64,000 nucleotides of DNA from Candidatus Babelota bacterium (GTDB lineage Bacteria > Babelota > Babeliae > Babelales > JACPOV01): positions 29,868-93,867 of the forward strand of contig JAKJAQ010000002.1 in the NCBI GenBank assembly GCA_022707425.1, written 5' to 3'. The notes under the pieces are model-generated. The model saw nothing but the letters and a program-made list of their open reading frames with translations. It did not search any database and was not told the DNA's origin. Positions 4,614-40,299 of the stretch are shown in pieces. Positions within the stretch are counted from its first letter, which is position 1; every line of letters starts with the position of its first letter. The position numbers were made by a program, and so were the translations under genes.

Positions 4614-4647
4614 AAATGGGGAAGTTTTCCTTCCCCATTTTTTTTAC
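4614..4647. terminator. bidirectional rho-independent terminator
   Basis: Stem ATGGGGAAG / CTTCCCCAT with loop TTTTC. It is flanked by an A-run and a T-run and lies between convergent genes. Confidence 0.65.
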
Positions 4648-5096: not shown

Positions 5097-5331
5097 GGCA
5101 TAACCTCCATTCATGAAAAAAAAACACATTGCCAAAATAAGTTTTGAAAAACAATAATTATTTTGATTCAACGCAACACCTCACATTTTTTCCAACCATT
5201 ATTTAAGTCACTGTAACACAACAATTTCATTAATTTCCATAATCTGCACCTACAGATGAGTTTTCTAGATTTTTATTACGTTGATTGCTACGCTACATTC
5301 ATTAATTATTAAAAAAATAAGGAGAGAGTTC

Positions 5332-15762: not shown

Positions 15763-15874
15763 AGCTGTCCCCAAAGAAATAATATATGAATTAATAAATC
15801 TCTATACTAGAGAATGATATCCGCATTAATTTGTCAATTAGAAATGCACTATCTTAATAATAAATAAGATAGAG

Positions 15875-17335: not shown

Positions 17336-17433
17336 CCTTCTTATTTCTTTAGGAAAAACTAGGCATTTTTTTTTAATTCATATACCTTATCTGCATCATA
17401 AAAAAAGTTATGATTCAACAACAGGGAAGTACA

Positions 17434-19344
17434 ATGAAGCGTCATCATTTTTTTTATTTTTTTTGTATCATTTCTTTTCAATTTTCTTTTATCACCGCAC
17501 AAGAAATCAAGCATGAATGTGGACTTGCGTTAGTTCGTCTTCTCAAACCCCTCGAATTTTATCAAGAAAAGTACGGCGACATGATGTGGGGATTAAACAA
17601 AACTTGTTTATTGCTTGAAAAACAGCGAAACCGTGGCCAAGATGGTGCGGGAATCGCTGTTATAAAATTTGAAATGCCGTTCGGCAAACATTACCTTAAA
17701 CGTTTACGCTTTGCGCAAGATTATGCGCTTGAACATCTGCTCGCATTTATTTCACAAAAAATAAAAGAATTTCCTACACGCACAATAATCGATTCATCCG
17801 CGTTGAAAGAGCAATTTGACTATGCAGGTGAAGTTTATCTTGGTCATGTACGGTACGGCACCTATGCAGGTCGCGGGATTGAATTTTGTCAGCCATGTGT
17901 TCATAAAAATAGCATTCCGGCAAAATGTTTAACCATTGCAGGCAATTTCAATATGACCAACAGTGACGAGTTGAAAAATGAAATCACCCAATGGGGGGTC
18001 GCACCAACGAGCGTTTCTGATACACAACTTATTTTACATCAACTCAGTTATCTTCTAGATCAAGAAGATGAAAAAAAATCACACGACAATGAATCATGTA
18101 CTATTGCATCTATTATTTCACAAGCAGCACACAATTGGGATGGCGGCTATGTATTTGCAGGGATGTTAGGTAATGGTGATGCATTTGTTTGTCGCGATCC
18201 GTCGGCAATCAGACCTGGTTTTTATTTTTTGAATGACGAAGTTTTTGCAGTGGCTTCAGAACGCGCAGCATTGGCCAGCGTTTTTAATATTTCGTATGAA
18301 GATATTAAAGAAATTCCCGCCGCTCATGTTATTTCGGTAAAAAAAGATGGAACTATTTCAATAACACCGTTTATGAATCCATTTGTCGCACGCCAATGTG
18401 TGTTCGAACGAATTTATTTTAGTCGCGGTCATGATCCTGCAATTTGTCAAGAACGAAAAAACTTAGGTAAACAACTTGCCGTGCGCATATTTGAGGAATT
18501 GAATCAGGACATTTCTCATACTCTCTTTTCATTTATTCCAAACACCGCAGAAATTTCCTTTTTGGGATTGACCGAAGAGCTTTCGCAACTATCATTTTTT
18601 CATCATCGCCAATTACTCTTCACCAAATTTCATGATCAGATTTCTGCTCAAGAAATTGATCAGCTTATGAACAAAAAAATACGCGCAGCAAAAGTAATTT
18701 ATAAAGATCAAATGCTCCGCACATTTATTAGTCATGAATCAACTCGTTCTGACCTTGCTTGCAACGTCTATGATATTTCAAAAGGTATCGTAAATGACGA
18801 TGATACACTTGTTGTTATTGATGATTCGATTGTACGCGGTACAACACTTAAAAATTCAATCATGAAACAATTAATTCAATTGCAACCGGCGCACATTATC
18901 GTTCTCAGTGCTGCACCTATGATTTTATATCCTGACTGTTATGGCATAGATATGAGTCAAATTGGTCATCTTATTGCGTTCAAAGCTGCGGTAGAATTAA
19001 CGCACGAGCGCGGTAATGCAAAATTATTTGATGAAATTTATCAAGAATGCATTGCACTACAAAAAGAAAAACATATTCAACACAATCCACTCAAAAAAAT
19101 ATATGAACAATTTTCTCAAACAGAACTTGAACAAAAAATTGCGCACCTTGTTACTCCCAATGTAAAAAACTGGAACGGATCAATTCGTGTTTTGTTTCAA
19201 ACAATCAATGGACTTCATGCAGCAATACCAGATTTTACCGGAGATTGGTATTTTACCGGCAATTACCCGACACCAGGCGGTTATAGAGTGTTAATAAACA
19301 GTTACATTAATTGGTACAACGGCATCGAAAAAAGATCCTATTAA
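17434..19344 (+). CDS. purF: amidophosphoribosyltransferase (long form) with hydrophobic N-terminal leader or propeptide
   Basis: AGGGAAG lies 4 nt upstream of the ATG at 17434; an alternative ATG is at 17410. The leader MKRHHFFYFFCIISFQFSFITAQEIKHE precedes the catalytic Cys in CGLALVRL. NRGQDGAGIA and the PRTase loop VVIDDSIVRGTT are present. Confidence 0.85.
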   Translation: MKRHHFFYFFCIISFQFSFITAQEIKHECGLALVRLLKPLEFYQEKYGDMMWGLNKTCLLLEKQRNRGQDGAGIAVIKFEMPFGKHYLKRLRFAQDYALEHLLAFISQKIKEFPTRTIIDSSALKEQFDYAGEVYLGHVRYGTYAGRGIEFCQPCVHKNSIPAKCLTIAGNFNMTNSDELKNEITQWGVAPTSVSDTQLILHQLSYLLDQEDEKKSHDNESCTIASIISQAAHNWDGGYVFAGMLGNGDAFVCRDPSAIRPGFYFLNDEVFAVASERAALASVFNISYEDIKEIPAAHVISVKKDGTISITPFMNPFVARQCVFERIYFSRGHDPAICQERKNLGKQLAVRIFEELNQDISHTLFSFIPNTAEISFLGLTEELSQLSFFHHRQLLFTKFHDQISAQEIDQLMNKKIRAAKVIYKDQMLRTFISHESTRSDLACNVYDISKGIVNDDDTLVVIDDSIVRGTTLKNSIMKQLIQLQPAHIIVLSAAPMILYPDCYGIDMSQIGHLIAFKAAVELTHERGNAKLFDEIYQECIALQKEKHIQHNPLKKIYEQFSQTELEQKIAHLVTPNVKNWNGSIRVLFQTINGLHAAIPDFTGDWYFTGNYPTPGGYRVLINSYINWYNGIEKRSY

Positions 19345-19359
19345 AGCGAGAGGCTTTTT

Positions 19360-21765
19360 GTGATTCTATTTATTATTTTATTTTCTTTAATGAGCACACT
19401 CAACGCAGAATCTGTCACGTATGAAGAAGCTGGAGTTAATATTACTGCGGGAAATCAGCTTATTAAAAATATCGCACCGGCAGTTCGCGCTACCGCGCGC
19501 GCGGGCACACAAGCACATCTTGGCGATTTCGCCGCTTTTTTTGATTTAAAAGAAACTGCTTATGAGGATCCACTGATTGTAAGCACTACTGATGGTGTTG
19601 GCACCAAATTAAAAATCGCACAACAAGTAAACAATCACGAATCAATTGGTTTTGATTTGGTTGCCATGAACGTGAATGATTTGATTGTTCATGGAGCAGA
19701 ACCTGTTTTTTTTCTTGATTATTTTGCGTGCGGAAAATTAGATGTTTCTCAAGCAACCGATGTTATCACTTCGATTGCGCGCGCATGCAAAGCGTGCAAT
19801 TGCGCGCTCATTGGCGGCGAAACTGCTGAAATGCCCAGCATGTATGATAATGATGAATATGATCTTGCTGGATTTGCAGTCGGACTCGTTGAACGAGCAA
19901 ATCGGTTACCAAAAAAAGATGAAATTAAAGCTGGCGATGTGGTTATCGGCATTGCTTCATCAGGATTACATTCAAATGGCTATTCATTGGTGCGTTATCT
20001 CATTGAAAAAAACAATGTTAATCTTTGCGCACAACCACCATTTGAATCATCGTACGATCATTTATACCAAGAATTATTACGACCGACAAAATTGTACATT
20101 AATTGTTTACTTCCATTAATTAAAGAACAAAAAATAAAAGCACTCGCGCACATTACCGGCGGCGGATTGCTTGAAAACATCCCGCGCGTTTTACCTGACG
20201 ATTGCTCCGTACAATTGGATATGAGCTGTTGGGAAATTAAACCAATTTTTTCATGGATTGCACGTTTAGGATCGATTCAAGAAAATGAAATGTTACGTAC
20301 GTTTAATTGTGGTATTGGCATGATGATTATTGCTGAGTATGAACATGCTGATGAAATTCTCAACCATCTGAAAACATATAACGAACAAGCTTGGATCATT
20401 GGAAGCGTCAAAAAAAGAAATGCACAACAGGCACAAGTAGTACTTGCGAATGCACATGAATTGTACCGCGAACATAACAACATGAACATTATGGTAATTG
20501 GCAGTGGTGCACGTGAACATGCAATCATTCACAAACTATTGCAGTCACCGTATATTAAAACAGTTTTTGCAGTTCCTGGAAATGGCGGCACTGCTATGCT
20601 TAATCAGGTAAAAAATGTTCCGCTTACACCTACTGATTTTGAACAATTAATCGCCTATGCACAACAACATAAAATCGATCTCACAATAGTTGGACCTGAA
20701 ACACCACTTGCGTTAGGAATCGTTGATGCATTCAACCGCGCAGGATTGAACTGTTTAGGACCAACAGCGCAAGCAGCGCAGATTGAATCGTCAAAAATAT
20801 TTGCAAAAGATTTTATGACGCGACACGCAATACCTACTGCGCATTATGCAATTTGCACTAACATTGAACAAGCTGAAAGTTACCTTGCACAACAAAACAA
20901 ATTTCCAATCGTGATAAAAGCCGATGGTTTAGCGCAAGGTAAAGGGGTCATTATTACTTTTACGCAGGAAGAAGCACTCCAAGCAGCACACGAAATGTTA
21001 AGCGGCAATGCCTTTGGCAATGCAGGAAAAAAAATTGTGATTGAAGAATTTTTGGAAGGACAAGAAGTAAGTTTTATCGTGCTTTCTGATGGAACACACT
21101 GCATCCCACTTGCAAGCGCACAAGATTACAAACGCAGAAATAATTATAATATGGGTCCCAATACGGGCGGCATGGGAGCGCATTCACCCGCACCAATTGT
21201 AACTCCTGCATTGCATGAACGCATCATGAATGAAATTATTCGTCCAACTTTGCAAGGAATGGCACACGAAGGAAAACCGTTTGTTGGTTTTTTATATGCA
21301 GGATTGATGATAACACCAGCAGGTGATCCGTATGTATTGGAATTTAATTGTCGATTAGGTGACCCTGAAACACAAGTTATTTTAGCGCGTATGCAAACCG
21401 ATTTGGCTACACTCAGCTTGGCAACGTTGCAAAAACGATTAGGAGAAATGAGCATTCACTGGAATGAGCAAAAAGCAATTAACGTTGTTGTTGCAGATGG
21501 CGATTATCCGTACACAACACAGTTGGGTCAACCGATTATTATTAATGCGCAACTTGTTTCTCCATGCACACATATTTTTCATGCGGGTACAAAACTTAAC
21601 AATCAACAATTAGAAACTGCAGGTGGAAGAATTTTATCAATAACTGCACTTGGAAATTCATTCAAACAAGCTCAAGAGAGAGCCTATAAACAGCTGCAAG
21701 CAATTGCAATTAATCATATGCATTACCGAACTGATATAGGCTCTCATGTTTCAATTAATGAGTGA
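19360..21765 (+). CDS. purM-purD: fused AIR synthetase (N-terminal) and GAR synthetase (C-terminal)
   Basis: One 801-aa ORF with no stop at the junction near nt 20482. The PurM part has YEEAGVNITAGN and DGVGTK. The PurD part starts MNIMVIGSGAREHAI and continues PGNGGTA. Start is either the GTG at 19360 (SD GAGAGG) or the ATG at 19390. Confidence 0.9.
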   Translation: MILFIILFSLMSTLNAESVTYEEAGVNITAGNQLIKNIAPAVRATARAGTQAHLGDFAAFFDLKETAYEDPLIVSTTDGVGTKLKIAQQVNNHESIGFDLVAMNVNDLIVHGAEPVFFLDYFACGKLDVSQATDVITSIARACKACNCALIGGETAEMPSMYDNDEYDLAGFAVGLVERANRLPKKDEIKAGDVVIGIASSGLHSNGYSLVRYLIEKNNVNLCAQPPFESSYDHLYQELLRPTKLYINCLLPLIKEQKIKALAHITGGGLLENIPRVLPDDCSVQLDMSCWEIKPIFSWIARLGSIQENEMLRTFNCGIGMMIIAEYEHADEILNHLKTYNEQAWIIGSVKKRNAQQAQVVLANAHELYREHNNMNIMVIGSGAREHAIIHKLLQSPYIKTVFAVPGNGGTAMLNQVKNVPLTPTDFEQLIAYAQQHKIDLTIVGPETPLALGIVDAFNRAGLNCLGPTAQAAQIESSKIFAKDFMTRHAIPTAHYAICTNIEQAESYLAQQNKFPIVIKADGLAQGKGVIITFTQEEALQAAHEMLSGNAFGNAGKKIVIEEFLEGQEVSFIVLSDGTHCIPLASAQDYKRRNNYNMGPNTGGMGAHSPAPIVTPALHERIMNEIIRPTLQGMAHEGKPFVGFLYAGLMITPAGDPYVLEFNCRLGDPETQVILARMQTDLATLSLATLQKRLGEMSIHWNEQKAINVVVADGDYPYTTQLGQPIIINAQLVSPCTHIFHAGTKLNNQQLETAGGRILSITALGNSFKQAQERAYKQLQAIAINHMHYRTDIGSHVSINE

Positions 21766-23641
21766 ATAAACGTGTATTGGTGTGTAACATCACCATATTG
21801 TTTTTATCACACGCTTCAATAATTTGTTGATCACGAACACTGCCACCTGGTTGTGCAATATAGCGCGCACCAAATTGTGCTGCCTTTTCAACATTATCTT
21901 CAAACGGGAAAAAGCCATCTGAAGAAACTGCAATGTTGCTCAGGTGTGCATAGGTTTTCAAAAATTCATTTTTTTCATTTTCAGTTAATGGTAAAACATG
22001 TAAAGGCGCAAACTGCGATCCTTTGACTAAAAGATGGTCAATATTTGTTCCATTAATAAAGTCGTTAATTGCATTGTTTCGATCTGGACGTTTGAGCGTT
22101 GCGTTAAAACATAATTGTTGGACTTTTGGATGATGACGCAAAATAAATTGCGCAGCCTTTTTTCCTGCAAGTTCCACACAATCAACTCTATTTTGCTGCC
22201 CTGCGCCAACACCGATTACTTGTAATGGTGTAGCATAGACCACAGAATTAGATTGCGTATATTTGGCGGCAATGCTCGCGAGTAATAATGCTTGTTTGGC
22301 TTCTTTTGGTAGGTATCGGTTTTTGGTAGTAACAACGTTTTTTTCACTTACTAAATCATGCGTGAGTTCACCTGAATTTGGTTGTTGTGTGAGTGCAACG
22401 CCAAATAGTTCACGAATTTCAAGATTATTATTGTTGCAATATGCTGGATCGACCTCAATAATTGAATAATTCCCTTCTTTTTTTGATTTGAGAATTTCTA
22501 ACGCTTCTGGTTCATAACCTGGCGCGATTATGCCATCACTCACTTCACGTTTGATCAATTGCGCAGTTTCCTGATCAACTTTATGACTGCATGCAATAAA
22601 ATCACCGAAAGAAGATTTTGGGTCTCCGTTGCGTGCTCGCAAAAAAGCGGTTGCTACAGCGGTCACTTCTCCGTCACTTTTCACATCGTATGCCGCCATT
22701 TCAGGATATGAAAGTGATGGCTCACCAATTCCAACACCAGCAGGTGATACGTGTTTATACGACGCGCAACACACAGTATTAAGATTTTCGCGTACTTCTT
22801 TTACTAACTGCCAACCAGTGATTGCATCAAGTAAATTAACATACCCAGGATTACCATTGAGAATCTTGAATGGATTGGTGCCACCATTAATTGCGTATAA
22901 TCCCGCATTTTTTTGATATGGGTTAAGACCATATTTTAAATTTTGTCCCAGATTATATTCTCTATAAAGAGTTTTGCCCGCTGAAAAAAAGTTTGCAATT
23001 GCAGCGTCGTAACGAGCGGTATGCTTAAAAGCTTTTAATGCAAAAAGTTGTTTTTGTTTTAAATCAAAAGATTCATTTTTTTCGAGAATTTGTTGGAATT
23101 TTTCATAATCTGCAGGATCTGAAATTACGATCACGTGTTGAAAATTTTTTGCAGCTGCCCGCAGTAATGTGACACCGCCAATATCAATATTCTCAACTGC
23201 GATATCCATCGATGCATTTTCTTTTTTTATTGCTTCCTCAAATGGATATAAATTGACAACCACAACATCGATCGCCGGAATGTCAAGTTGATCTAATTCT
23301 TGTTGATGTGTCGGCAAATTGCGATTAGCAAGAATTGCACCATGAATTTTTGGATGCAATGTTTTAACGCGCCCATCTAAAATTTCTGGAAATCCGGTTA
23401 AATCAGAAATTTTCAACAATTTTCGTTTTTCCCATTGAGATAAATTTTCTTCTAGAGAGCTGTAGGTACCTCCGGTAGAAATTATCGTATAGTTATTTTT
23501 AATGAGAGATTGAGCCAAAGGTAAAATGCCGTTCTTTTGAGAAACACTCAGTAATGCATATTTTTCTCTTTGCGTCTCTGATTCCATACAAAAACCATTG
23601 AGAGAAAAAAAAGAAATTAATAGCAGAAGTCTTTTCTTCAT
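21755..23641 (-). CDS. purH: bifunctional AICAR transformylase / IMP cyclohydrolase (ATIC-like long form) with signal-like leader
   Basis: AGGAG lies 6 nt upstream of the ATG at 23641. Leader MKKRLLLLISFFSLNGFC is followed by MESE. The MGS domain has ALLSVSQKNG and GRVKTLHP. The AICARFT domain has KHVSPAG, YTQSNSV, GAGQQNRV and FFPF. Confidence 0.9.
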   Translation of the reverse strand: MKKRLLLLISFFSLNGFCMESETQREKYALLSVSQKNGILPLAQSLIKNNYTIISTGGTYSSLEENLSQWEKRKLLKISDLTGFPEILDGRVKTLHPKIHGAILANRNLPTHQQELDQLDIPAIDVVVVNLYPFEEAIKKENASMDIAVENIDIGGVTLLRAAAKNFQHVIVISDPADYEKFQQILEKNESFDLKQKQLFALKAFKHTARYDAAIANFFSAGKTLYREYNLGQNLKYGLNPYQKNAGLYAINGGTNPFKILNGNPGYVNLLDAITGWQLVKEVRENLNTVCCASYKHVSPAGVGIGEPSLSYPEMAAYDVKSDGEVTAVATAFLRARNGDPKSSFGDFIACSHKVDQETAQLIKREVSDGIIAPGYEPEALEILKSKKEGNYSIIEVDPAYCNNNNLEIRELFGVALTQQPNSGELTHDLVSEKNVVTTKNRYLPKEAKQALLLASIAAKYTQSNSVVYATPLQVIGVGAGQQNRVDCVELAGKKAAQFILRHHPKVQQLCFNATLKRPDRNNAINDFINGTNIDHLLVKGSQFAPLHVLPLTENEKNEFLKTYAHLSNIAVSSDGFFPFEDNVEKAAQFGARYIAQPGGSVRDQQIIEACDKNNMVMLHTNTRLFTH

Positions 23642-23678
23642 ATCTGCTCCTTTATTGTGGTTAAAAAAAAATTAAATA

Positions 23679-24632
23679 TTACGCGCGTTTTACTAATTGT
23701 GTCATCCATTGTGGGAAAAAACCTGAAAATATTTTTTTATTTTCAGTCGAAGTGTTAAATAGTTCATCTTGATAAAAAAGAAATAACCCAACCATAACGG
23801 CAATTCCCGAAACGTAATAATGCCACGTAATGAGTTCATTAAAAAATAACCAACCATACACGGCAGTAAAAAGTGGACTTAAAAAATCGGTAAATGAAAG
23901 AAATGTCGCCGAATAGTGTTTGAGTAAATGAATGTAAAAATTATGGCACATAATATTACTCACGATAATTAGAATCGCCAACCACCAGCAAAACGTCACT
24001 GGTGATTGCACGATCAATGACCCTTCAACCATAAAAGCGGTAACCAGTGCAAGCAAACCACCACCAAACATGCGAATTCCATTGGTCATGCCCGCAGAAT
24101 AATTATTATCGCGCACTAATTTTCTCATCACAATAATACTGTAAGTGTGACTCGCAACGGCAAATAAAATTGCACACTCGGGCCACGAAAGAACCAATAA
24201 TTCTCCCATCAGTTTTTCTGCTGGTGAAGAAAGTAACAGCAAGGGAACAATGCCAAGAAAACCAAGAATCAATCCGCCCCATTGTTTTTTTGATAAGAGT
24301 TCATTAAATGCAAAATACGAAAATAATGCGGCAAAAAAAGGAGAGATATTAAGTAAAAATGACATTTTGGCAGCAGACATGTGCATCAACCCCCAATTGC
24401 GCAACACATATTTTAAATAGACGCCAAAAAAAATAATTTGCACATAATACCACCAATGTTTTTTATCTAAAGTAAAATGAGTTTTTTGAATGCGATTATA
24501 TGCAAGCAAGATCACTCCTGCCAAACTCATGCGGATCCCCGTAAGCCAAATAGGGCTAACCATTGAAAGCAAAAATTTACTCATCGGAATAGATGAACCA
24601 AATAATGCATGCAACAAAATAATTTGTAACAC
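23679..24632 (-). CDS. DMT superfamily (EamA-like) transporter
   Basis: 317 aa with about 10 TM segments in two EamA-like halves. It lies between purQ and purH on the same strand, with a 37-nt gap to purH. Confidence 0.75.
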   Translation of the reverse strand: MLQIILLHALFGSSIPMSKFLLSMVSPIWLTGIRMSLAGVILLAYNRIQKTHFTLDKKHWWYYVQIIFFGVYLKYVLRNWGLMHMSAAKMSFLLNISPFFAALFSYFAFNELLSKKQWGGLILGFLGIVPLLLLSSPAEKLMGELLVLSWPECAILFAVASHTYSIIVMRKLVRDNNYSAGMTNGIRMFGGGLLALVTAFMVEGSLIVQSPVTFCWWLAILIIVSNIMCHNFYIHLLKHYSATFLSFTDFLSPLFTAVYGWLFFNELITWHYYVSGIAVMVGLFLFYQDELFNTSTENKKIFSGFFPQWMTQLVKRA

Positions 24633-24651
24633 GTTTCTCCTTTTTTACTCG

Positions 24652-25410
24652 TTAGCTCATATATGAAATTGCATTTGAAAAAATGGTAATGCCTGCTGGT
24701 TCTTGTTCTTGAAATGGCGATTGATACTCATAAATAAATCGTTCCGGATGTGGCATAAGACCAAATATGCGACCAGTTGAATCACATACTCCCGCAATTG
24801 CATGTAATGAACCATTTGGATTATCGGGATAGTGATCGGTTGCAACACCTTCCGGGCTTGCATACCGTGCAACTACTAACTGATCGCTTTCGAGTTGATC
24901 CATAACTGATTGCGTGGCAAAAAATTTTCCTTCGCCGTGTGCGACGGGAATTTTAATTTGTTTTCCCACAAGTCCACGCATAAAAATACATTCGCTTGGT
25001 TCAATAATAAGTGAAATCCAACGACATTCAAATTTTCCCGAATTGTTATGCAGCAATGTTGCATGCTGTTCTTTCTTTTGTGGATACGGCAAGAGACCTG
25101 CGCGAACTAACACTTGAAATCCGTTACAAATACCAATAATTAATTTTGACTGCGCAATAAAATCATGCAGTTGATCAGACAAAAAGTTCATGAGTTCGAG
25201 TGCAAATAGTTTACCGCTTGCGATATCATCGCCATACGAAAAACCGCCGGGAATAACTAATATTTCAAATGAACTGAGTTTTTTTTCACCCGAGCGCAAT
25301 TGATTAAGTAACACTATTTGTGCATCTGCTCCTACTTTTTCAAATGAATGAACCGTTTCATTATCACAATTAGTTCCATCAGTTTTTAAAATGCACACAC
25401 GTGGCTTCAT
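24652..25410 (-). CDS. purQ: FGAM synthase glutaminase subunit
   Basis: MKPRVCILKTDGTNCD, nucleophile region GICNGFQ, and HPER near the C-terminus. The ATG at 25410 overlaps the purL TGA (ATGA), so the longer ORF start at 25443 is rejected. Confidence 0.9.
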   Translation of the reverse strand: MKPRVCILKTDGTNCDNETVHSFEKVGADAQIVLLNQLRSGEKKLSSFEILVIPGGFSYGDDIASGKLFALELMNFLSDQLHDFIAQSKLIIGICNGFQVLVRAGLLPYPQKKEQHATLLHNNSGKFECRWISLIIEPSECIFMRGLVGKQIKIPVAHGEGKFFATQSVMDQLESDQLVVARYASPEGVATDHYPDNPNGSLHAIAGVCDSTGRIFGLMPHPERFIYEYQSPFQEQEPAGITIFSNAISYMS

Positions 25411-28253
25411 ACACAAAAAACCTCCTTCATTGGTTTTTGCCATGCATCAAATAATTCTTGTATTTCAACATCAAAAAGCAGCGCGTCATTTCGTTGAACC
25501 ACTATTCTTTTCTCCGCTTGCGTTCGACCAAGTACTTTGTGATCGATCGTGTTAAAAAAATTATTTTTGTAATTTTCTTGTGTTACTTCAATAATAAAAC
25601 ATCCTGCTGTTTCGTTAAAAAGCAACCAATCGGAACGTGCACCAGCAATTGCACCAATATCAATCACCGCACCTCGCTGACCGCCAAAACACATTTCTGC
25701 TAACGTAACTGCAATACCACCCTCACTTACATCGTGGCACGCAAGAATTTTTTGTTGTTGGCATAACGCATACAGTTGTTCAAATAATTGTTTCTTTTGT
25801 CGCAAATCAATAGTGGGAACTCGATCAGTGTTAATCTTGAGAATTTGTTCGTACACAGATCCACCCATTGCTTCAACATCCAAATTACCAATGAGCAAAA
25901 GTAATGAATCATTTTTTTTCAATTGTGTTGTCATTCGTTTTGAAACATCAGGAATTTTACCAAAAACAGAAATACACAATACTGGTGGGATTTCCAAAAT
26001 TTCGCCATGTGGATAGTTATAGGTGCTTGAAAGACTGTCTTTGCCTGAAATAAATGGCAATCCAAACGCGTTCATCGCGTCAATGCACGCTTGCATTGAG
26101 CGATCGAGCGCCCATAATTTTTCAGGGGTCGGTTTTGGCCAAATAAAATTATCGATCAACGCCGCATCATGTACATTTCCACCAACGGCAACTAAATTTG
26201 CAAGCGCTTCAGTAATGGCCCATACACTTCCAGCATAAGGATCAATGGTATTAAGAATTGGATTTAATCCATGACTAATTATTAATCCATACGGCTTTCC
26301 ATACAACGGTACTAAAAGCGCTGCATTTTGCGGTGCTGACTGATTGTTACCGCTATACGGTGGTAAAGCATTCATCGCTTGCACTGAGTGATCATACTGA
26401 CGAGCGATTGGTTCTTTTGAACAAATATTTCCATGCTGCAAAATTGCACAAAAAATTGATCGCCATTCATCAAGGGTTGCTGGTGCATTATATATTTGTT
26501 GTTCTCTTATTTTTTGTACGGGCGAACGCGCAGCAAGTGGCAATAACGGTTGTTCTTCAAACAAAAAATGTGTTTCTAGATCAACCACGCATTCATTTTC
26601 ATGCATCACCGTAATTCGTTTATTGTTAGTAAAGTAGCCAATATCGGCTGCAAGAACATTATAAAGTTGGCAAATCTCGTTAAACGTTTGAACATGTTCA
26701 GGCGCAATTGCACAAATCATTCGTTCTTGTGATTCCGATATCCAAATTTCCCACGGCGAAAGACCCAGATATTTAAGCGGCACTTTTTCTAATTGAACGA
26801 GTACGCCCAAATCAGCGCCCATTTCACCAATCGCTGATGAAAAGCCACCCGCACCACAATCGGTGATTGCTTGAATTACATCTGCATTTCTTGCAGCAAG
26901 TAATGCATCTGCCATTCGTTTTTGTTCGATTGCATTTCCAATTTGCACGGCAGTTGCGTTAACACTGATCGTTTCATGCGTCATCGCGTCACTTGAAAAG
27001 GTGGCACCGTGAATGCCATCTCTTCCCGTTTTGCCCCCAAGAACAAAAATACGATCATACTCTCGCGGTTTACCTTTTTTACATTGTGCTTCGGGGATTA
27101 AACCATAGGCACCCACAATCACCGTTGGCTTTGCACGAAAATCAGGATGAAAATGAAACGAACCATTATTAGTAGGAATGCCCATTCGGTTACCATAATC
27201 ACGCACACCCGCAACAACATTTCTCATTAAATAGTCAGGGTGCAAACAACCAAGTGGTATTTCGCTCTGTTTCATGGTTGGTTGAGCAAAACAAAAAATA
27301 TCGGTTGATGCAATTACTTGTGCACCAAGTCCAGTGCCCATGATATCGCGAAAAACACCGCCGCTGCCGGTTGCAGCGCCACCATATGGTTCGATTGCGC
27401 TGGGACTATTATGAGTTTCAACTTTTCCCGCAATTGCCCAGCCATCGTAGAAACTAAACACGCCGCCATTATCTACAAATGCTGATAATACGTTTTTTTG
27501 GTAGTTGAGTGCTGTATTTTTAAGACGTGAAAATAATGAAGATTTTTTTTGTCCATCAACAATGATCGGTGACCGAAATGTTTTGTGACTACAATGTTCA
27601 GACCATGTTTGTGCGATCGTTTCTAATTCTGCATCACGCGGGTCGCGCAGTTGTTTTTTGAAATAATCACGAATTACTGTTAATTCAGAATCATTTAAAT
27701 ACAGCTGATTGTTGCGCGCATATTCTTTAAGTTCAACATCGCTCATTGTACTTACTGCAATTGTTGCGCTTGCGGTCGGGGTACCTTCAATCATCAGATT
27801 GAGCGGCTTTTCAATTACTAATTGATTCACCGTTTTATTAATAAGTAATTTATCAAGCACAAGTGACAATTCTTGTTGATCGAAATCACCAAAAAAGTAA
27901 TATTCTCGACTGACATCAACAGCTCGTATCGCATTAATCCCAAACGTATGAACTGTTTTGAATAACGATTCAACTTCCGGATTCATCACACCCGGTTTAT
28001 TGCCAATTTCAATAACTTTTTGTGCATTCAATGCTAATGATTGATTATTAATTGAGACTTCATCAAGCGGATCAACAAGAATTTTTGCTGCAATATAGGT
28101 TGCCGTTGATTCATCAATTCCTTGGAAACGATAAATTTTTGCCGTACGAATTGCATTAATTGAATGTATACCAAGTGTACGTTTAATTTCAGACAATAAT
28201 GCGTTGGCATGAATATCAGTTGATTTCGTTGCAACTCGTATTTCTTGAATCAT
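25407..28253 (-). CDS. purL: FGAM synthase synthetase subunit with N-terminal PurS-like / lgPurL N-domain
   Basis: About 948 aa. Motifs are TWSEHCSHKTF, ETHNHPSAIEPYGGAATG-like (VETHNSPSAIEPYGGAATGSGG) and DCGAGG. The extra N-terminal ~170 aa resemble PurS or the large-PurL N-domain. SD GAAGGAG lies 7 nt upstream of the ATG; a GTG one codon further upstream is also possible. Confidence 0.9.
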   Translation of the reverse strand: MIQEIRVATKSTDIHANALLSEIKRTLGIHSINAIRTAKIYRFQGIDESTATYIAAKILVDPLDEVSINNQSLALNAQKVIEIGNKPGVMNPEVESLFKTVHTFGINAIRAVDVSREYYFFGDFDQQELSLVLDKLLINKTVNQLVIEKPLNLMIEGTPTASATIAVSTMSDVELKEYARNNQLYLNDSELTVIRDYFKKQLRDPRDAELETIAQTWSEHCSHKTFRSPIIVDGQKKSSLFSRLKNTALNYQKNVLSAFVDNGGVFSFYDGWAIAGKVETHNSPSAIEPYGGAATGSGGVFRDIMGTGLGAQVIASTDIFCFAQPTMKQSEIPLGCLHPDYLMRNVVAGVRDYGNRMGIPTNNGSFHFHPDFRAKPTVIVGAYGLIPEAQCKKGKPREYDRIFVLGGKTGRDGIHGATFSSDAMTHETISVNATAVQIGNAIEQKRMADALLAARNADVIQAITDCGAGGFSSAIGEMGADLGVLVQLEKVPLKYLGLSPWEIWISESQERMICAIAPEHVQTFNEICQLYNVLAADIGYFTNNKRITVMHENECVVDLETHFLFEEQPLLPLAARSPVQKIREQQIYNAPATLDEWRSIFCAILQHGNICSKEPIARQYDHSVQAMNALPPYSGNNQSAPQNAALLVPLYGKPYGLIISHGLNPILNTIDPYAGSVWAITEALANLVAVGGNVHDAALIDNFIWPKPTPEKLWALDRSMQACIDAMNAFGLPFISGKDSLSSTYNYPHGEILEIPPVLCISVFGKIPDVSKRMTTQLKKNDSLLLLIGNLDVEAMGGSVYEQILKINTDRVPTIDLRQKKQLFEQLYALCQQQKILACHDVSEGGIAVTLAEMCFGGQRGAVIDIGAIAGARSDWLLFNETAGCFIIEVTQENYKNNFFNTIDHKVLGRTQAEKRIVVQRNDALLFDVEIQELFDAWQKPMKEVFCV

Positions 28254-28271
28254 CACTCTGCTCCTTCAATT

Positions 28272-28305
28272 TTGACAAAGATCAGAAATGTATTAAGATT
28301 TCTGA
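28272..28305 (+). promoter_or_regulatory. candidate purT promoter (TTGACA-16-TAAGAT) overlapped by an 8-bp inverted repeat
   Basis: TTGACA at 28272..28277 and TAAGAT at 28294..28299. The inverted repeat TCAGAAAT-N8-ATTTCTGA spans 28282..28305. A possible divergent -10 (TAATAC on the minus strand) lies in the repeat spacer. Confidence 0.35.
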
Positions 28306-28366
28306 CTTCAAAGCCAAGGTTACTCAAAAAAATAAAGAGATCAATAAACTTTGAAAGGAGAATATA

Positions 28367-29602
28367 GTGAAGTTACTGTTCATAAGTTGTATTTTCTCAT
28401 TTTGTTTATCACTGAATGCAAACGTATCAATTGGTTCGCCTCTCACGCCATCAGCAACGAAAGTATTGCTCTGCGGCGGTGGCGAATTAGGCAAAGAACT
28501 AGTTATTGAATTGCAGCGATTTGGTGTGGAAGTTATTGTTCTTGATCGATATGATAATGCACCGGCAATGCAAGTTGCACACCGCAGCCATACACTTTCA
28601 ATGCTCGATGGAAATGCATTACGCACCATTATTGAATTGGAACAACCAAACATTATTGTTCCTGAAATTGAAGCGATCGATACACAAACATTGTTAGAAC
28701 TTGAAAGCGAAGGATACACGGTCATTCCAACTGCTCGCGCTGTGCATATTACTATGAACCGTGAACGCATTCGCCAACTTGCACACGATCTTCAATTAAA
28801 AACATCAGCATTTAAATTTGCACATTCGTATGATGAATACCTATCTGCAGTCGACAAACTTGGTTTTCCTTGCGTTGTAAAACCAACGATGAGTTCTTCA
28901 GGAAAAGGCCAATCAATTATTCACAACAAACATGAAATTGATCCTGCATGGAACTTTGCACAAACTGGCGGTCGCGCGCAAACAAACAGCGTCATTGTTG
29001 AAGAATTTATTCCGTTTGATTACGAAATTACGCTGCTCACCGTGCGTGATGCGCAGGGAAACACTCATTTTTGTGAACCGATTGGCCACAAACAAATCGA
29101 CGGCGATTATCGCTCTTCATGGCAACCACAACCAATGAGCAACAATTTATTAGATCAGGCAAAGAATTATGCAAAAACAATTACTGACGCTCTGGGTGGC
29201 CGCGGCATTTTCGGCGTTGAATTATTTGTAAAGGGTGATGAAATTTATTTCAATGAAGTTTCTCCACGCCCGCATGATACCGGGATGGTTACGCTTATTT
29301 CACAAAATAGTTCTGAGTTTGGATTGCACGCACGCGCATTACTTGGTTTACCAATTGGTACCATTAAACACTATGGACCGAGCGCATCATGCGCAGTTCT
29401 TGTACACGGTAATTCAGAAAATGTTCAATTTTCAAATCTTGATACTGCACTATCTATTCCAGATTCGCAGCTGCGCTTATTTGGAAAACCAAATGTTCAT
29501 GGGCAACGCCGCATGGGTGTTGTTCTTGCACAAGGTGAAACCATCGAACAAGCGTTAGAACGAGCGCAAATAGTGGCGAGCAGATTATCAATTTCACTTT
29601 AA
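28367..29602 (+). CDS. purT: formate-dependent GAR transformylase (ATP-grasp) with signal-like leader
   Basis: AAAGGAG lies 7 nt upstream of the GTG at 28367. The ~21-aa hydrophobic extension (V)[20 protein letters not shown] precedes [23 protein letters not shown]. This segment and [16 protein letters not shown] match E. coli PurT as I recall it. Confidence 0.9.
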
Positions 29603-29615
29603 AAAAGGGAAAAAT

Positions 29616-30929
29616 ATGTTGATTACGTTTATTTTAGCTTCATTGTGCAATTTTTTATGCATTAATGCCGATCAAATTGCAGAAGGCAAAACGAAAATAA
29701 TTCGTCGGTATGCAGCTGACCAAACAAAAGTAATTATTGAATCAAAAGATGACATTACCTCAGGCGATGGGTACAAAAAACATGATATAATGCGCGGTAA
29801 AAGTGCACTTGCAAATCAAACAACATGCAATGTGTTTCGTTTACTTAAACAATGCAATATACCAGTTGCATTTGATGAGCAAATTGATCACAATAAATTT
29901 TTAGCACCCCAGTGCACTATGATTCAGTTGGAAGTTGTCGTGCGGCGCGCTGCACACGGCTCATGCTTAAAACGTTATCCACATCTGCGTAAGGCTGATG
30001 TTTTTCCACAACTCATCGTTGAATTTTTTCTTAAAACAAGTGGTAGACAATGGCAAGGAAGTCCAATCCCAAAAGATGATCCATTCATGATTATCAACAA
30101 TAATAAAGCGGATCTTTATCTACCCGATGCACCATTGCATTCACAACAACCGTTCTTAACGCTTGATACCTTTCCCTGCGATCAGCAACCAGAACTGTAT
30201 GATCACATGGCGCTTATTGCAAAAAAAACATTTCTTATTCTAGAAAAAGCGTGGCAACTGCAAGGTGGCCAGTTAGTTGATTTTAAAGTTGAATTTGGTA
30301 TCGATGCACACGGCAATTTATTGCTTGCTGATGTTATCGACAACGATTCATGGCGTGTTTTAAAAAATGAAAACTATATCGACAAACAATTTTATCGCGA
30401 TGGTGGTGAGTTAGATGCGGTAACAAAATTGTATGAACAAGTACAATCGCTAACCGCACGTTTTTCATTGCCAACGCAACAATTAATTATTTGGCGTGGA
30501 TCGGAAAAAGATGTCGTAGAACCGTTGCTTGAACAATGGAAATCGGCTCTTTCATGGCTTGATGTAAAAATTGTAACGATTTCGATGCATAAAGAACCGG
30601 TCAAAGGATATCAAGAATTGCAAAAAGCTCTGCAAGAAATTCCCAATTCAGTTATTGTTGCATTCATTGGGCGCAGTAATGGTGCGGGACCAACATTGGC
30701 AGCACAATGCACGGTGCCCGTAATTACCGTACCGGTAAATTGGCAACAATTTCCTGAAGATGTGTGGTCATCATTGCGCGCACCAAGTGATGTTCCTGTC
30801 CTTACCATTCTTGAACCCAATAATGCACTATTGGCTGCATTACAAATATTGGCAATGAACAACCCAGCATTGTATGCACAATTGAGAATGAATCAAGAAA
30901 AACGATTAATCAATACTTCGATTAATTAA
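29616..30929 (+). CDS. purC-purE: bifunctional SAICAR synthetase / class II AIR carboxylase (PAICS-like fusion)
   Basis: 437 aa. [39 protein letters not shown] and [12 protein letters not shown] form the PurC half. GRSNGAGP and [10 protein letters not shown] form the class II PurE half. SD AAGGGA. The N-terminus [18 protein letters not shown] is hydrophobic. Confidence 0.9.
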   Translation: [437 protein letters not shown]

Positions 30930-30944: not shown

Positions 30945-30985
30945 AGATGTACGCACGAATTGAAAAAAGTGCGTACATCTTTTTT
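30945..30985. terminator. bidirectional rho-independent terminator
   Basis: 12-bp stem AGATGTACGCAC / GTGCGTACATCT with an A-run before and a T-run after. It lies between convergent purC-purE and the 30985 gene. Confidence 0.65.
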
Positions 30986-31605
30986 CATTTAATATCGAAT
31001 TCTTTCAATGCTTCCACAAAATCGTCACCATACTTTCCACTTTGATACAATAATATTATTTTTTTTAACCGTTCTTCATAAAGCATTTTGGGTAATAAAT
31101 ACCGATTTTCTGCCGTTGAATCGGCCAATAACGCTCGCCATTCAAGTCCGCTGCATTTTTTGCTGGTTACTACGTTCAAAAGCCAACTCATTGCATTATA
31201 TTCTTCTGTTTGAAAAAGCAATGTGCGATCGCTTTTTTTAATTGATTCTGGTTGGACATCTATCACTTTCTGTTCAAGATCAATAAACAAATCAGCAAGC
31301 ATAATTTTTTGATTTTTACTTAACCATTCTGCATCTATTTGCGTGCGTACTTTAATTCGCCAAAACCACTCCAATGATTCATAAGCATTTTTTTTGTTAA
31401 GTTCAAAATATAATTTACCAAGCATTGCATTCACATCGGCACATTCAAGATTTACTTTTTTAACACCAGGACTTAATTTCTGGTATTCATCGGTTGCATC
31501 TTTATACAACTTTTGCAAATGTAACTTAGTTGATTCAATATTGTTGACTCGTTCTTCCATTGCAGTTAACGAGAACGCATACACTAATGCAATTATTTTT
31601 TTCAT
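30985..31605 (-). CDS. leader-bearing hypothetical protein, paralog A of a two-member family
   Basis: Leader MKKIIALVYAFSLTA is followed by MEE. It shares motifs with 32293..32892: MLGK, VQPESIKK/IQPQSIKD, C.GLEW, and RYLLPKMLYEERLKKI/KYLTPEYLRNERLKTI. Confidence 0.6.
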   Translation of the reverse strand: MKKIIALVYAFSLTAMEERVNNIESTKLHLQKLYKDATDEYQKLSPGVKKVNLECADVNAMLGKLYFELNKKNAYESLEWFWRIKVRTQIDAEWLSKNQKIMLADLFIDLEQKVIDVQPESIKKSDRTLLFQTEEYNAMSWLLNVVTSKKCSGLEWRALLADSTAENRYLLPKMLYEERLKKIILLYQSGKYGDDFVEALKEFDIK

Positions 31606-32292: not shown

Positions 32293-32892
32293 TTAATCTA
32301 ACTGTTCAGAATTATCCATTTTTTTTAATTGTCCATAGCTGGCAATAGTTTTGAGTCGCTCATTTCTAAGATATTCTGGCGTCAAATATTTGGTTGTCGA
32401 ATCAGGTTTTCCAAAAAGTGAGCACCATTCCAATCCTTCGCAGGTATTATTTTCAACGATTCCTTTGAGCCATTGGCGTGCTTGTAATCTATCAATGTCT
32501 TGTTGTTCAGATGGTAGCATATCCTTTATTGATTGCGGTTGAATTTCCATTACCATTGAATCAAGCTCTATTTTTAGTTCAGCATAAGTTTCTGCTTGTT
32601 TTTCATTCAGCCATTTATAATCAAGATAAGTTCGCTCTTTAAACCGCTTATAATAGTTCATGGCTGCTTCATGATCTTGTTCACCAAGTGCAACGACAAT
32701 TTTACCAAGCATCACAATGCAATCACCCTGTTCAAGAAATTTATGTCGCAGTTTAGGTCTCAATTCTACATAAATTTTACCCGCCTCCTTATAAACTTGA
32801 GCAAACTGTCTGCGAGTTTCCAGTACTTGTTCACCTTCTTCCATTGCATGAATGGGCATCACTAAAAAAAATAAAATAACTAATTTCTTCAT
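32293..32892 (-). CDS. leader-bearing hypothetical protein, paralog B of a two-member family
   Basis: AGGAG lies 6 nt upstream of the ATG. Leader MKKLVILFFLVMPIHA is followed by MEE. It is a paralog of 30985..31605. Confidence 0.6.
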   Translation of the reverse strand: MKKLVILFFLVMPIHAMEEGEQVLETRRQFAQVYKEAGKIYVELRPKLRHKFLEQGDCIVMLGKIVVALGEQDHEAAMNYYKRFKERTYLDYKWLNEKQAETYAELKIELDSMVMEIQPQSIKDMLPSEQQDIDRLQARQWLKGIVENNTCEGLEWCSLFGKPDSTTKYLTPEYLRNERLKTIASYGQLKKMDNSEQLD

Positions 32893-35268: not shown

Positions 35269-36042
35269 TTATTTCTTTTGAGCAACTACTAAAATCCGCT
35301 CACTTCTTTTATCATCAAATGTTGCACCATCGATTGCACTTTGATGCACTACTTTAAAACCGTGCTCAGTCAACAATTGTTTCAATTCTTGCGCAGAATA
35401 CGTTTGCAATGTTTGTACATCTTGATTGATTTTAGTTTTTTTTCCTGATTGTTGGAGCGTGATTGTGTTCGATGTAAGGATACCAGCATCATCAATTGTA
35501 CTATATTGAATTTTACGTGTTGTTATTTTACCAACCGTCGTTTGCCAATCGATGGTCAACTTCGTAATAGTGTCGGCATGCTCTAAATAACGTCGATTGA
35601 AAATATCAAAAATATATATACTATTTTTGTTCAGATTTACACTGATCGAATTCAAGGCTTGTTCAAAATCGTTTTTGGTCAAATGGCCAATCGCATTAAA
35701 AATAGTAATGACTGCATCAAATTCACCGATGCGCGCAGTGCGCATATCGCACTTTAAAAAGGTTATTTTTAAATTTTCTTTTTTTGCTTTTTGTTTTGCA
35801 ATAGCGAGCATTTTTGCATTAAAATCAGCACCAACAACTTGATATCCGTGCTTATGCAAATAAAAAACTTGCGATCCGGTGCCGCACGTTATATCGAGAA
35901 CCGTTTTTACGTTATATTTTCGCAACAATGTTTCAATCGTGCGATTTATAATCTGAGAATTGTGCTCATTAAATTCATCATAGCCTTCAGATTCCTTATT
36001 ATAATGCGATGGTTTAGCACTAACATGAGTTACTACTTTCAT
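35269..36042 (-). CDS. class I SAM-dependent methyltransferase
   Basis: Motif I VLDITCGTGSQV, acidic loop VVGADF, and post-I/II regions. ATGA-type 4-nt overlap with the upstream carbonic anhydrase gene. Confidence 0.8.
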   Translation of the reverse strand: MKVVTHVSAKPSHYNKESEGYDEFNEHNSQIINRTIETLLRKYNVKTVLDITCGTGSQVFYLHKHGYQVVGADFNAKMLAIAKQKAKKENLKITFLKCDMRTARIGEFDAVITIFNAIGHLTKNDFEQALNSISVNLNKNSIYIFDIFNRRYLEHADTITKLTIDWQTTVGKITTRKIQYSTIDDAGILTSNTITLQQSGKKTKINQDVQTLQTYSAQELKQLLTEHGFKVVHQSAIDGATFDDKRSERILVVAQKK

Positions 36043-36677
36043 AACTCATTCCATGTATTATTTGTCTTTTCATAATTTGCTATTAATCCGGTGCTTAATT
36101 CGAAATACCATGCATGCAATTGAAGTTTTTGTTGTTCAACTCGCTCTGCTATCCATGAAAAACTCATTAAATTTTCAAGCGAATTAGCAAGTGCATATTG
36201 CTCGCAGCGAGTATTTTTTTCTTGCTCGGTCAATGATGCATGTTCTTCATTCATTTTATCATATGCCGGGCGCGCAAGCTGCATCCATTGTGCAATAAAA
36301 TTATCAGAATTTTTATCAAGTAATTCGGCATTATCAATCAATGCTTGAATACCACCGCAATAACTGTGCCCAAGAATAATGATGTGTTCAACTTGCAAAA
36401 AACGTACTGCAAATTCCAGTGCAGCACTCGTGCCATGATATTTACCGCTCTGTTCACATGGCGGCACCAAATTGGCAACATTGCGCACCACAAAAAGTTC
36501 ACCCGGTTGCGCATCAAAAACCATTGCGGGGTCAACACGTGAATCGGAACATGAAATAATCATAATTTTAGGCCGTTGCCCAAAGGCAACAAGTTCGTCA
36601 AAAATAGTAGTAGTGTTAAAAAACTTTTTTCTAAATGCAGCATTACCAGCAATGAGTTTTTTAATTTCTGATGACAT
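36039..36677 (-). CDS. beta-class carbonic anhydrase
   Basis: CSDSRVDP and HSYCGG zinc-ligand motifs; 212 aa. Confidence 0.85.
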   Translation of the reverse strand: MSSEIKKLIAGNAAFRKKFFNTTTIFDELVAFGQRPKIMIISCSDSRVDPAMVFDAQPGELFVVRNVANLVPPCEQSGKYHGTSAALEFAVRFLQVEHIIILGHSYCGGIQALIDNAELLDKNSDNFIAQWMQLARPAYDKMNEEHASLTEQEKNTRCEQYALANSLENLMSFSWIAERVEQQKLQLHAWYFELSTGLIANYEKTNNTWNEL

Positions 36678-39858: not shown

Positions 39859-39935
39859 TGGCGGAGCTGACGAGACTCGAACTCGCGACCTTCCGCGTGA
39901 CAGGCGGACGCTCTAACCAACTGAGCTACAGCTCC
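39859..39935 (-). tRNA. tRNA-Asp (anticodon GTC), CCA encoded
   Basis: Manual cloverleaf fold: acceptor GGAGCTG/CAGCTCC, D-arm GCTC/GAGC, anticodon loop CTGTCAC, T-arm GCGAG-TTCGAGT-CTCGT. 77 nt. Confidence 0.95.
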
Positions 39936-40059
39936 ATAAAAGAATTTCATTCGACTTCGCATAACGCTTGCGTCGCAATCACACCATTGCATCATTTTAT
40001 TCGATGAATGGCCTGCCCGGCATAGTTTGCCGAGTCTAACGACCCGGATAAACCAAGAC

Positions 40060-40135
40060 TGGCTCCGCGGGCTGGACTCGAACCAGCGACCCAACGATTA
40101 ACAGTCGTTTGCTCTACCGACTGAGCTACCGCGGA
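40060..40135 (-). tRNA. tRNA-Asn (anticodon GTT), CCA encoded
   Basis: Manual fold: acceptor TCCGCGG/CCGCGGA, anticodon loop CTGTTAA, T-arm GCTGG-TTCGAGT-CCAGC. 76 nt. Confidence 0.95.
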
Positions 40136-40223
40136 ACTCAATTTTATTATATTTCAATTTTATCACGCCTTAGCACTACGTGCAATGACGGATGGCCTGC
40201 CAGTCATTTCCTTCAGAAATGAC

Positions 40224-40299
40224 TGGTGGGCGGTGCAGGATTCGAACCTGCGACCCTCAGTTTGTAAGACTGATGCTCTACCAGCTGAGCTAACCGCCC
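40224..40299 (-). tRNA. tRNA-Val (anticodon TAC), CCA encoded
   Basis: Manual fold: acceptor GGGCGGT/ACCGCCC, anticodon loop CTTACAA, T-arm GCAGG-TTCGAAT-CCTGC. 76 nt. Confidence 0.95.

Follow-up and report, generated by a model that had tools for sequence, protein, structure and literature searches.

A PAICS-type fusion of SAICAR synthetase and class II-type PurE at the end of a Dependentiae purine cluster

The purine cluster of a Dependentiae genome ends in a single gene that joins PurC, the synthetase for succinylaminoimidazolecarboxamide ribonucleotide (SAICAR), to a class II-type PurE, in the arrangement known from animal PAICS. The gene lies at 29616..30929 (+) in a stretch of 64,000 nucleotides from a Candidatus Babelota bacterium (contig JAKJAQ010000002.1, positions 29,868 to 93,867), and we refer to that whole stretch as the window. 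We consider it about 85% probable that the product is a bifunctional PAICS-type enzyme serving steps 6-7 of the Dependentiae purine cluster, and that it is a resident member of a deep clade made up of bacteria only. This reading is carried by the architecture of the protein, its intact catalytic residues, its fold, the context of the cluster, its placement in the tree and a native composition.

The open reading frame (ORF) begins with ATG, has no internal stop and encodes 437 residues. The product is identical to GenBank entry OQA35111.1, from a 'Candidatus Dependentiae' metagenome-assembled genome, where it is named only as a SAICAR synthase. The ATG follows the stop codon of purT by 13 nt and has an AAGGGA ribosome-binding site 5 nt upstream (29605..29610, +). 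Since that site precedes this ATG, it supports the upstream start and hence the translation of an N-terminal leader, which is taken up below. Pfam places a SAICAR synthetase domain at residues 21-264 (29676..30407, +; SAICAR_synt PF01259, E 2.4e-41) and an AIR carboxylase-type PurE domain at residues 292-429 (30489..30902, +; AIRC PF00731, E 3e-19), where AIR is aminoimidazole ribonucleotide. A preliminary description of this DNA, made from the letters without database searches, had reported PurC motifs followed by a PurE half in one 437-residue frame. Every motif that it quoted is present, with AEGKTK at residues 22-27, GRSNGAGP at 352-359 and the others at 95-122, 237-248 and 382-391.

Among sequences of solved structures, the full-length protein matches the PAICS of Bombyx (4ja0, 3.5e-53) and of human (2h31, 2e-50) best, versus about 1e-23 for stand-alone PurC and about 1e-4 for class I PurE. 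The halves were also searched separately, a check that the preliminary description had suggested, and both match PAICS first. The PurC half scores 7e-35 to PAICS versus 1e-23 to the best stand-alone PurC. The PurE half scores 4.5e-14 to PAICS, versus 1.5e-5 to the best stand-alone PurE, which is of class I, and 2.3e-4 to the class II enzyme of Treponema denticola. The AlphaFold model, with 25 homologues as input, has a predicted local distance difference test score (pLDDT) of 88.5, and Foldseek matches it in the PDB library to the octameric human PAICS 6yb8 over 425 columns (E 1.5e-33). The Pfam domains, the PDB matches and the fold therefore agree on the PurC-then-PurE order that had been likened to animal PAICS. 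The further statement that the protein is nearly collinear with human PAICS is right roughly, but it overlooks an 18-residue hydrophobic leader and the 55 residues, versus 31 in human, that lie between K140 and D196. With this architecture, with intact active sites and with each half closest to PAICS, the window protein is a PAICS-type bifunctional PurC-PurE.

The active sites were compared by mapping the residue list for human AIRc and SAICARs (PMC9376930) onto the window protein and 42 bacterial homologues. The substrate-contacting side chains and the class-diagnostic loop residues are kept by the window protein and by almost all 42 homologues. In the SAICAR synthetase site, which receives ATP, carboxyaminoimidazole ribonucleotide (CAIR) and Asp, the conserved residues are G24-K-T-K27, T48, E106, K140, K224, E226, D239, D244-S-W-R247, K257 and R261. 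In the AIR carboxylase site they are G295, S296 and D299; S323, H325 and K326; and G352-R-S-N-G356. Listed positions that differ, for example M272R, T275E, S276K, A302M, L335A and D133S, also vary among the bacterial homologues.

Two loops bear on the class of the PurE half. The '40s loop', S323-M-H325-K326 (30582..30593, +), supplies the catalytic His and the class II Lys in the active-site alignment (PMC9376930, PMC10484210). H325 corresponds to human His303, the universally conserved general base (PMC9376930), and where class II has Lys, class I PurE has Arg, as in SAHR (PMC10484210). The '70s loop', G352-R-S-N-G-A-G-P359 (30669..30692, +), aligns with human G330-R-S-N-G-L-G-P. G-R-S-N-G is present in most of the 42 bacterial homologues, and T. 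maritima 1o4v has the class I loop GGAAHLPG at the same position. The earlier recognition of GRSNG as a class II signature stands, as G-R-S-N-G and S-M-H-K are both class II-type and no class I loop is present. The PurE half is class II by sequence criteria, and its loop motifs suggest CO2 chemistry without N5-carboxyaminoimidazole ribonucleotide (N5-CAIR).

The class II-type domain is predicted to form CAIR by adding CO2 directly to AIR, His325 acting as general base, and the step would require neither PurK, nor ATP, nor an N5-CAIR intermediate. CAIR would then pass to the PurC domain, where phosphorylation by ATP and condensation with aspartate would yield SAICAR (mechanism from PMC9376930). 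By analogy with human PAICS, the protein may assemble as an octamer on its PurE core and channel CAIR (PMC9376930, PMC10484210). The main support for the assigned function comes from the surroundings of the gene, in which the fusion is the sole candidate for steps 6-7. The ATP-grasp gene next to it is purT: its product scores 585 bits to TIGR01142, above the cut-off of 502. We rejected PurK as an identity for it, as the PurK model gives 205 bits, under the cut-off of 318. A tblastn search of the 64-kb window found no second PurT/PurK-like gene and no second PurC or PurE gene. The preliminary description was thus correct that the cluster has no purK.

Proteins of this kind are widespread in bacteria. 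Among 5.8 billion proteins searched, 2,982 matched the window protein. The best 120 of them are all 420-455 residues long and carry both domains, at 54-61% identity save for two near-copies at 98% and 89%. The named sources among these 120 are Dependentiae, Gracilibacteria, Patescibacteria and Verrucomicrobia, and no named eukaryote is found there. With one genome per GTDB species, at least 545 loci encode relatives, and their distribution over the bacterial phyla is patchy. Single-ORF full-length fusions make up 49 of the 80 best loci and come from Patescibacteria, Verrucomicrobiota, Alphaproteobacteria, Tepidisphaerales, Dependentiae, Armatimonadota, Eremiobacterota, Bdellovibrionales and Gammaproteobacteria. 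The alphaproteobacterial ones, from Pseudolabrys and Xanthobacteraceae, lie on contigs of up to 2.5 Mb.

These counts overturn the view in the preliminary description that such a fusion, with its class II PurE, is unusual for bacteria. It had itself allowed that the protein might belong to ordinary bacterial clades with many fused homologues, and the many fused homologues are indeed there (120 of the best 120 proteins and 49 of the 80 best loci). Its other suggestion, an under-described bacterial lineage of PAICS, fares better: there is a bacteria-only clade, and our literature search on bacterial PurC-PurE(II) fusions found nothing specific. Fusion homologues have already been auto-annotated as bifunctional by JGI, and PAICS and class II PurE are well known as kinds of enzyme. 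What appears to be undescribed in the searchable literature is how large and how deep the bacterial PAICS-type radiation is, together with the bacteria-only clade that bears an insertion and the signal-type leader.

The components of the fusion are also found apart in bacteria. In six Chloroflexota species of the Anaerolineae (L055, L061, L063, L064, L068 and L069), a PAICS-type purC is directly followed by a class II purE in frame with it, and a single stop codon at the exact domain boundary divides the halves. Unfused PAICS-type PurC genes exist in bacteria as well. From these pairs and unfused genes it follows that the components, and a route to the fusion by one mutation, exist within bacteria. 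Other Thermomicrobiales/Chloroflexota loci (L070, L071, L072 and L079) have ORFs of 650-741 residues in which the N-terminal ~285 residues are a PAICS-type PurC fused to a further C-terminal part.

Trees were made by neighbour-joining with Kimura distances and bootstrap on 47 taxa (an earlier set gave 60/60). The eukaryotic sample was 10 named PAICS, nine from animals and one from a protist (EukProt). The window group and a second group, which we call mid, form a clade of bacteria only, with bootstrap values of 100/100 for the full length, 92/100 for the PurC half and 100/100 for the PurE half. The eukaryotes are monophyletic (100/100) and lie across the main split from it, on a side that also holds Armatimonadota-like, Chloroflexota and Eremiobacterota sequences and one from Patescibacteria. 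The window clade, with members from Dependentiae, Patescibacteria, Verrucomicrobiota, Alphaproteobacteria and others, is sister to eukaryotic PAICS together with its closer bacterial relatives. The same split can be seen in an insertion of the PurC domain at residues ~141-195 (30036..30200, +), found by alignment and modelled as a confident small beta unit. It amounts to about 25 residues relative to human. Between K140 and D196 there are 55-63 residues in the window group and 68-102 in the mid group, versus 31 in human and 25-31 in the other bacterial group (51 in L052). The agreement of this pattern with the tree supports the split.

The preliminary description had proposed transfer between domains of life as one explanation for the gene. 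Its recent form would have an ancestor of the Dependentiae, as an intracellular parasite of protists, take PAICS from its eukaryotic host. Dependentiae do live inside protists (PMC6561590), the class II purE of some archaea has been interpreted as eukaryote-derived (PMC3261824), and the solved structures closest to the window protein are animal PAICS. However, the window protein is 32-36% identical to the 10 eukaryotic PAICS, versus 54-61% to hundreds of bacterial fusions, and its 120 best matches include no named eukaryote, as noted. It groups with the eukaryotes in 0/100 bootstrap replicates and falls outside their clade, and the insertion specific to its own clade is missing from the eukaryotes compared. 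The gene is also native in composition: GC is 0.387 and GC at third codon positions (GC3) is 0.295, versus window means of 0.377 and 0.295, and its codon-usage divergence is within the range of window ORFs of similar length. This comparison had also been suggested for the gene, and it shows nothing atypical. The clade placement and the typical GC, GC3 and codon usage lead us to reject a recent transfer from eukaryotes for the window gene, and we give it very little credence.

A more serious proposal is that the fusion arose once and crossed the boundary between bacteria and eukaryotes long ago, in either direction. A eukaryotic donor would have given rise to every bacterial PAICS-type gene, or a bacterial fusion to eukaryotic PAICS, and the window gene would be a remote outcome of these events. 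The proposal is compatible with the function proposed here, and we put its chances at slightly short of even. One family holds both the eukaryotic and the bacterial fusions: in a tree of the PurC half rooted with three classical PurC, all PAICS-type sequences form one clade with the classical ones outside. An Armatimonadota fusion (L050) reaches 46-53% identity with these eukaryotic PAICS, and the Armatimonadota-like fusions group with eukaryotes at 74/100 over the full length. In a database search with L050, the best matches after one bacterial relative are PAICS of a protist, another Armatimonadetes, a cnidarian, a mollusc and a deuterostome. The patchy spread across bacterial phyla also fits, and the one-stop gene pairs of Chloroflexota and the unfused PurC of PAICS type would favor a bacterial origin of the fusion. 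On the other side, the node that joins eukaryotes and Armatimonadota falls to 40/100 and 5/100 on the separate halves, and the root, set with three classical PurC fragments, has weak support at the deep nodes, with a single protist sampled. For inter-domain transfer, the Armatimonadota enzymes are far stronger candidates than the gene of the window, and if any such transfer happened in the family, it involved the Armatimonadota-like/eukaryote clade and not the window gene. As a separate observation, L050 and proteins P0125-P0133 of the Armatimonadota interleave with protist and animal sequences in searches.

The cluster that the PurC-PurE gene closes begins with a divergent purF-like amidophosphoribosyltransferase gene for 644 residues (17410..19344, +), followed by a purM-purD fusion for 801 residues (19360..21765, +). 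Next are purH, for 628 residues (21755..23641, −), an EamA-family transporter gene inside the operon (23679..24632, −), and purQ (24652..25410, −), whose likely start is the Met of MKPRV, in an ATGA overlap with the stop of the next gene. That gene is a purS-purL fusion for 949 residues without a glutaminase domain (25407..28256, −). Directly upstream of purC-purE is purT (28367..29602, +), which encodes the formate-dependent transformylase for glycinamide ribonucleotide (GAR) and has a GTG start and an AAAGGAG ribosome-binding site. Elsewhere in the 64 kb there are genes for a phosphoribosyl pyrophosphate (PRPP) synthetase, a phosphoribosyltransferase, a nucleoside transporter and a beta-carbonic anhydrase; neither purB nor purN lies in the window. 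The carbonic anhydrase, which is leaderless, is encoded ~5 kb downstream of the class II-type PurE (36039..36677, −). It could supply CO2, the class II substrate, although the nearness may be a coincidence. When the whole window was scanned at Rfam gathering thresholds, neither a riboswitch nor any other regulatory RNA was found ahead of the pur operons.

Four further Dependentiae or Dependentiae-like loci (L081, L084, L046 and L083) have pur clusters syntenic with that of the window. The window (17410..30929), L046, L081 and L084 show that the de novo purine pathway is nearly complete in Dependentiae genomes. The cultured Dependentiae C. destructans has purine salvage only (PMC6561590). Several details of the clusters are worth recording. 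In the purM-purD fusion, the AIR synthetase comes first and the GAR synthetase second. This order is the reverse of that in eukaryotic GARS-AIRS. In L081, purM and then purD are adjacent and separate (the purD of L081 and L084 was identified from Pfam matches), which suggests that the purM-purD fusion is recent and local. The PurS-PurL architecture of 945-952 residues with a separate PurQ is common to L081, L084 and L086. The EamA (DMT-family) transporter adjoins purQ/purSL in four genomes, namely the window, L081 (3656..4621), L084 (2736..3713) and L086 (16781..), and may carry a purine intermediate or product. In L086, two tandem genes of PurP type (3427..5555; DUF1246/DUF1297, an archaeal-type formate-dependent formyltransferase of aminoimidazolecarboxamide ribonucleotide) replace PurH. 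By sequence similarity, tandem PurP-type genes apparently also stand in place of PurH in L046 (7699..9839).

The window protein begins with a hydrophobic leader at residues 1-18 (29616..29669, +) that resembles a Sec signal peptide by hydropathy and manual inspection. Leaders were judged by hand and by hydropathy, according to their n, h and c regions and small residues at -3 and -1. This one has a 15-residue hydrophobic core followed by I-N-A, and the predicted cleavage leaves DQIAEGKTK at the new N-terminus. Residues 2-18 form a detached, low-confidence helix in the model. Leaders are found on five of the seven pur enzymes of the window, the PurF-like protein, PurM-PurD, PurH, PurT and PurC-PurE, and are lacking on PurQ and PurS-PurL. 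The junctions fall before NVS in PurT, between (M)ILFIILFSLMSTLNA and ES in PurM-PurD, and between MKKRLLLLISFFSLNGFC and MES in PurH. In the PurF-like protein the junction lies between …FFCIISFQFSFITA and QEIKHE-Cys, so that the leader is followed by a short propeptide before the catalytic Cys (…FITAQEIKHE, then CGLALV). None of the 13 other soluble Pfam-assigned enzymes of the window has a leader (5/7 versus 0/13, Fisher p = 0.0014).

The leaders also recur beyond the window. Of the 124 closest PAICS-type homologues, 26 have a leader of 21-32 residues, which has diverged in sequence and kept its character. In most of these, a small residue (A, G or S) precedes EGKTK by 4-7 residues, close to the point at which many leaderless homologues start. 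In L081, leaders are seen on PurM, PurD and PAICS, and in L084 on PurM, PurT, PurD and PAICS, with none on PurQ and PurSL in either. L083 has them on PAICS and PurF. L046 has them on PurT and PurF, with none on PurM and PurB, and cleavage of its PurF between …RTMA and CGIAF would expose the catalytic Cys1. L086, taken as a control with a leaderless PAICS, has no leader on PurP, GuaA, PurB, PurM, PurL or PurQ. The EamA transporter is present in L086 too and is therefore not specific to leader-bearing clusters. The leaders are real, conserved and specific, and their topology signals, a basic N-terminus and acidic residues after a short core, predict export over an anchor facing the cytoplasm. 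Three other readings of them were set aside. No lipobox ([LVI][ASTVI][GAS]C) fits, which disposes of lipoproteins. A reverse signal-anchor (N-out, C-in) was judged unlikely, as the hydrophobic cores are short, at 13-15 residues, and many leaders carry Lys or Arg at their very N-terminus and acidic residues behind the core. A start-codon artefact was rejected, as ribosome-binding sites lie directly upstream and the leaders recur in five enzymes and in 26 homologues that had been called independently; in purT, no in-frame start follows ahead of the conserved Rossmann strand.

If the leader functions as a Sec signal, PurC-PurE would not be cytosolic. Together with PurF, PurM-PurD, PurT and PurH it would be sent to the periplasm or beyond, where it would work on ATP, PRPP, amino acids and CO2 derived from the host, or act as an effector directed at the host. 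We consider this possible but doubtful. The leader is evidently translated, as there is a ribosome-binding site just upstream and no usable in-frame start downstream. Its anatomy is that of signal peptides: the h-region spans 13-15 residues, the residue at -1 is small and the one at +1 is acidic or polar (A and D, in I-N-A and the following D). The position of its end shortly before EGKTK, shared by most of the 26 homologues, the bias toward pur enzymes, the recurrence in four other loci as opposed to the uniformly leaderless L086, and the predicted exposure of Cys1 in the PurF of L046 all point the same way. In the isolate C. destructans, 44% of coding sequences have signal peptides (Deeg et al., PMC6561590). 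Against export, PurS-PurL and PurQ never have a leader, nor do PurM and PurB in L046, so that a linear pathway would be split across the membrane. It also counts against it that, to our knowledge, periplasmic biosynthesis dependent on ATP and PRPP has no precedent. A bolder version, which we hold to be speculative and rather unlikely, extends this to a whole lineage: a lineage of Dependentiae, which are intracellular energy parasites of protists, would export PurF, PurD, PurT, PurM, PurC-PurE and PurH through Sec, and not PurS-PurL and PurQ. Purine assembly would then be largely periplasmic or host-facing, running on ATP, PRPP, amino acids and CO2 supplied by the host, and the EamA transporter might shuttle an intermediate or product. 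Our literature search found no description of signal peptides on purine enzymes of Dependentiae.

Several points weigh against the preferred reading of a bifunctional enzyme in a resident bacterial pathway. A functional leader would place the enzyme outside the cytoplasm, at odds with a simple cytosolic pathway. The window holds no purB for step 8. For the clade as a whole, class II chemistry is predicted on loop motifs only. Neighbour-joining trees with 10 eukaryotes, nine of them animals, give weak resolution at the deep nodes and at the root. The role of the clade may also vary, as members stand apart from pur genes in Verrucomicrobiota and apparently in Alphaproteobacteria and Patescibacteria. 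Verrucomicrobiaceae L085, most Alphaproteobacteria and Patescibacteria L002-L045 have their clade members alone among unrelated housekeeping genes, and the surrounding 8-10 kb hold no pur genes. Such lone members could be a second copy, or the sole enzyme in genomes thought to lack the pathway.

The relationship of the window protein to known systems varies with the feature considered. With animal PAICS (human 2H31/6YB8; Bombyx mori 4JA0) it shares the domain order, the fold over ~425 positions, the catalytic His, and the GRSNG and SxHK loops. Animal PAICS works without PurK, and the window cluster is likewise without purK. It differs in its low identity, its ~25-residue PurC insertion, its 18-residue signal-type leader and its separate bacteria-only clade, and also in its genetic setting, a bacterial operon in which a ribosome-binding site precedes the gene and purT lies immediately upstream. 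The PurE of T. denticola (3RG8/3RGG) is a characterised prokaryotic class II AIR carboxylase, with a kcat of 77 s-1 as cited in PMC9376930. It is prokaryotic, PurK-independent and class II-type like the window PurE half, and it shows that class II chemistry occurs in bacteria, but it is a stand-alone, unfused protein of ~159 residues and a more distant match than animal PAICS (2.3e-4 versus 4.5e-14).

The classical route, by PurK, class I PurE (N5-CAIR mutase) and stand-alone PurC, likewise converts AIR to SAICAR with homologous PurE and PurC folds. It uses three proteins and one extra ATP, and its PurE has the loops GGAAHLPG and SAHR, whereas the window PurE lacks both loops and no purK lies in the 64 kb. 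The Armatimonadota-like fusions (L050, P0133) and the Chloroflexota pairs (L061, L063, L064 and L068) belong to the same PAICS-type family as the window protein, and the Chloroflexota ones lie inside pur clusters. They are on the eukaryote side of the split and lack the insertion (25-31 residues), and they are closer to eukaryotic PAICS in identity, at 46-53% for Armatimonadota L050 and 41-47% for Chloroflexota L063.

In the textbook division, animals use PAICS, with class II PurE and no PurK, and microbes use PurK with class I PurE; this division underlies antibacterial programmes directed at PurE and PurK. Much of uncultivated bacterial diversity does not follow it. Hundreds of bacterial species have PAICS-type fusions, which fall into at least two deep clades, and eukaryotic PAICS lies within one of these. 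The origin of animal PAICS thereby becomes testable, as a bacterial fusion, as a descendant of a Chloroflexota-like pair, or as a transfer to or from Armatimonadota-like bacteria. Dependentiae have been published as lacking nucleotide biosynthesis, and in the window the purine pathway is almost complete. Should the signal peptides be functional, an intracellular parasite would here place a core ATP-dependent biosynthetic pathway outside the cytoplasm, which would be without precedent.

Other features of the window were noted. Just downstream of the PurC-PurE gene, 30985..31605 (−) and 32293..32892 (−) encode paralogous signal-peptide proteins of ~200 residues with no Pfam match (MKKIIALVYAFSLTAMEE… and MKKLVILFFLVMPIHAMEE…). 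A WD40-repeat protein with a signal peptide is encoded at 14293..15774 (−), and a signal-peptide protein of 1,679 residues, with no Pfam match, at 53550..58589 (−). The only Rfam matches in the window are three clustered tRNA genes at 39862..40299 (−). The gene at 60978..62720 (−) encodes an ATP-dependent DNA ligase made up of N, adenylation and C domains, the architecture of the eukaryotic/archaeal type.

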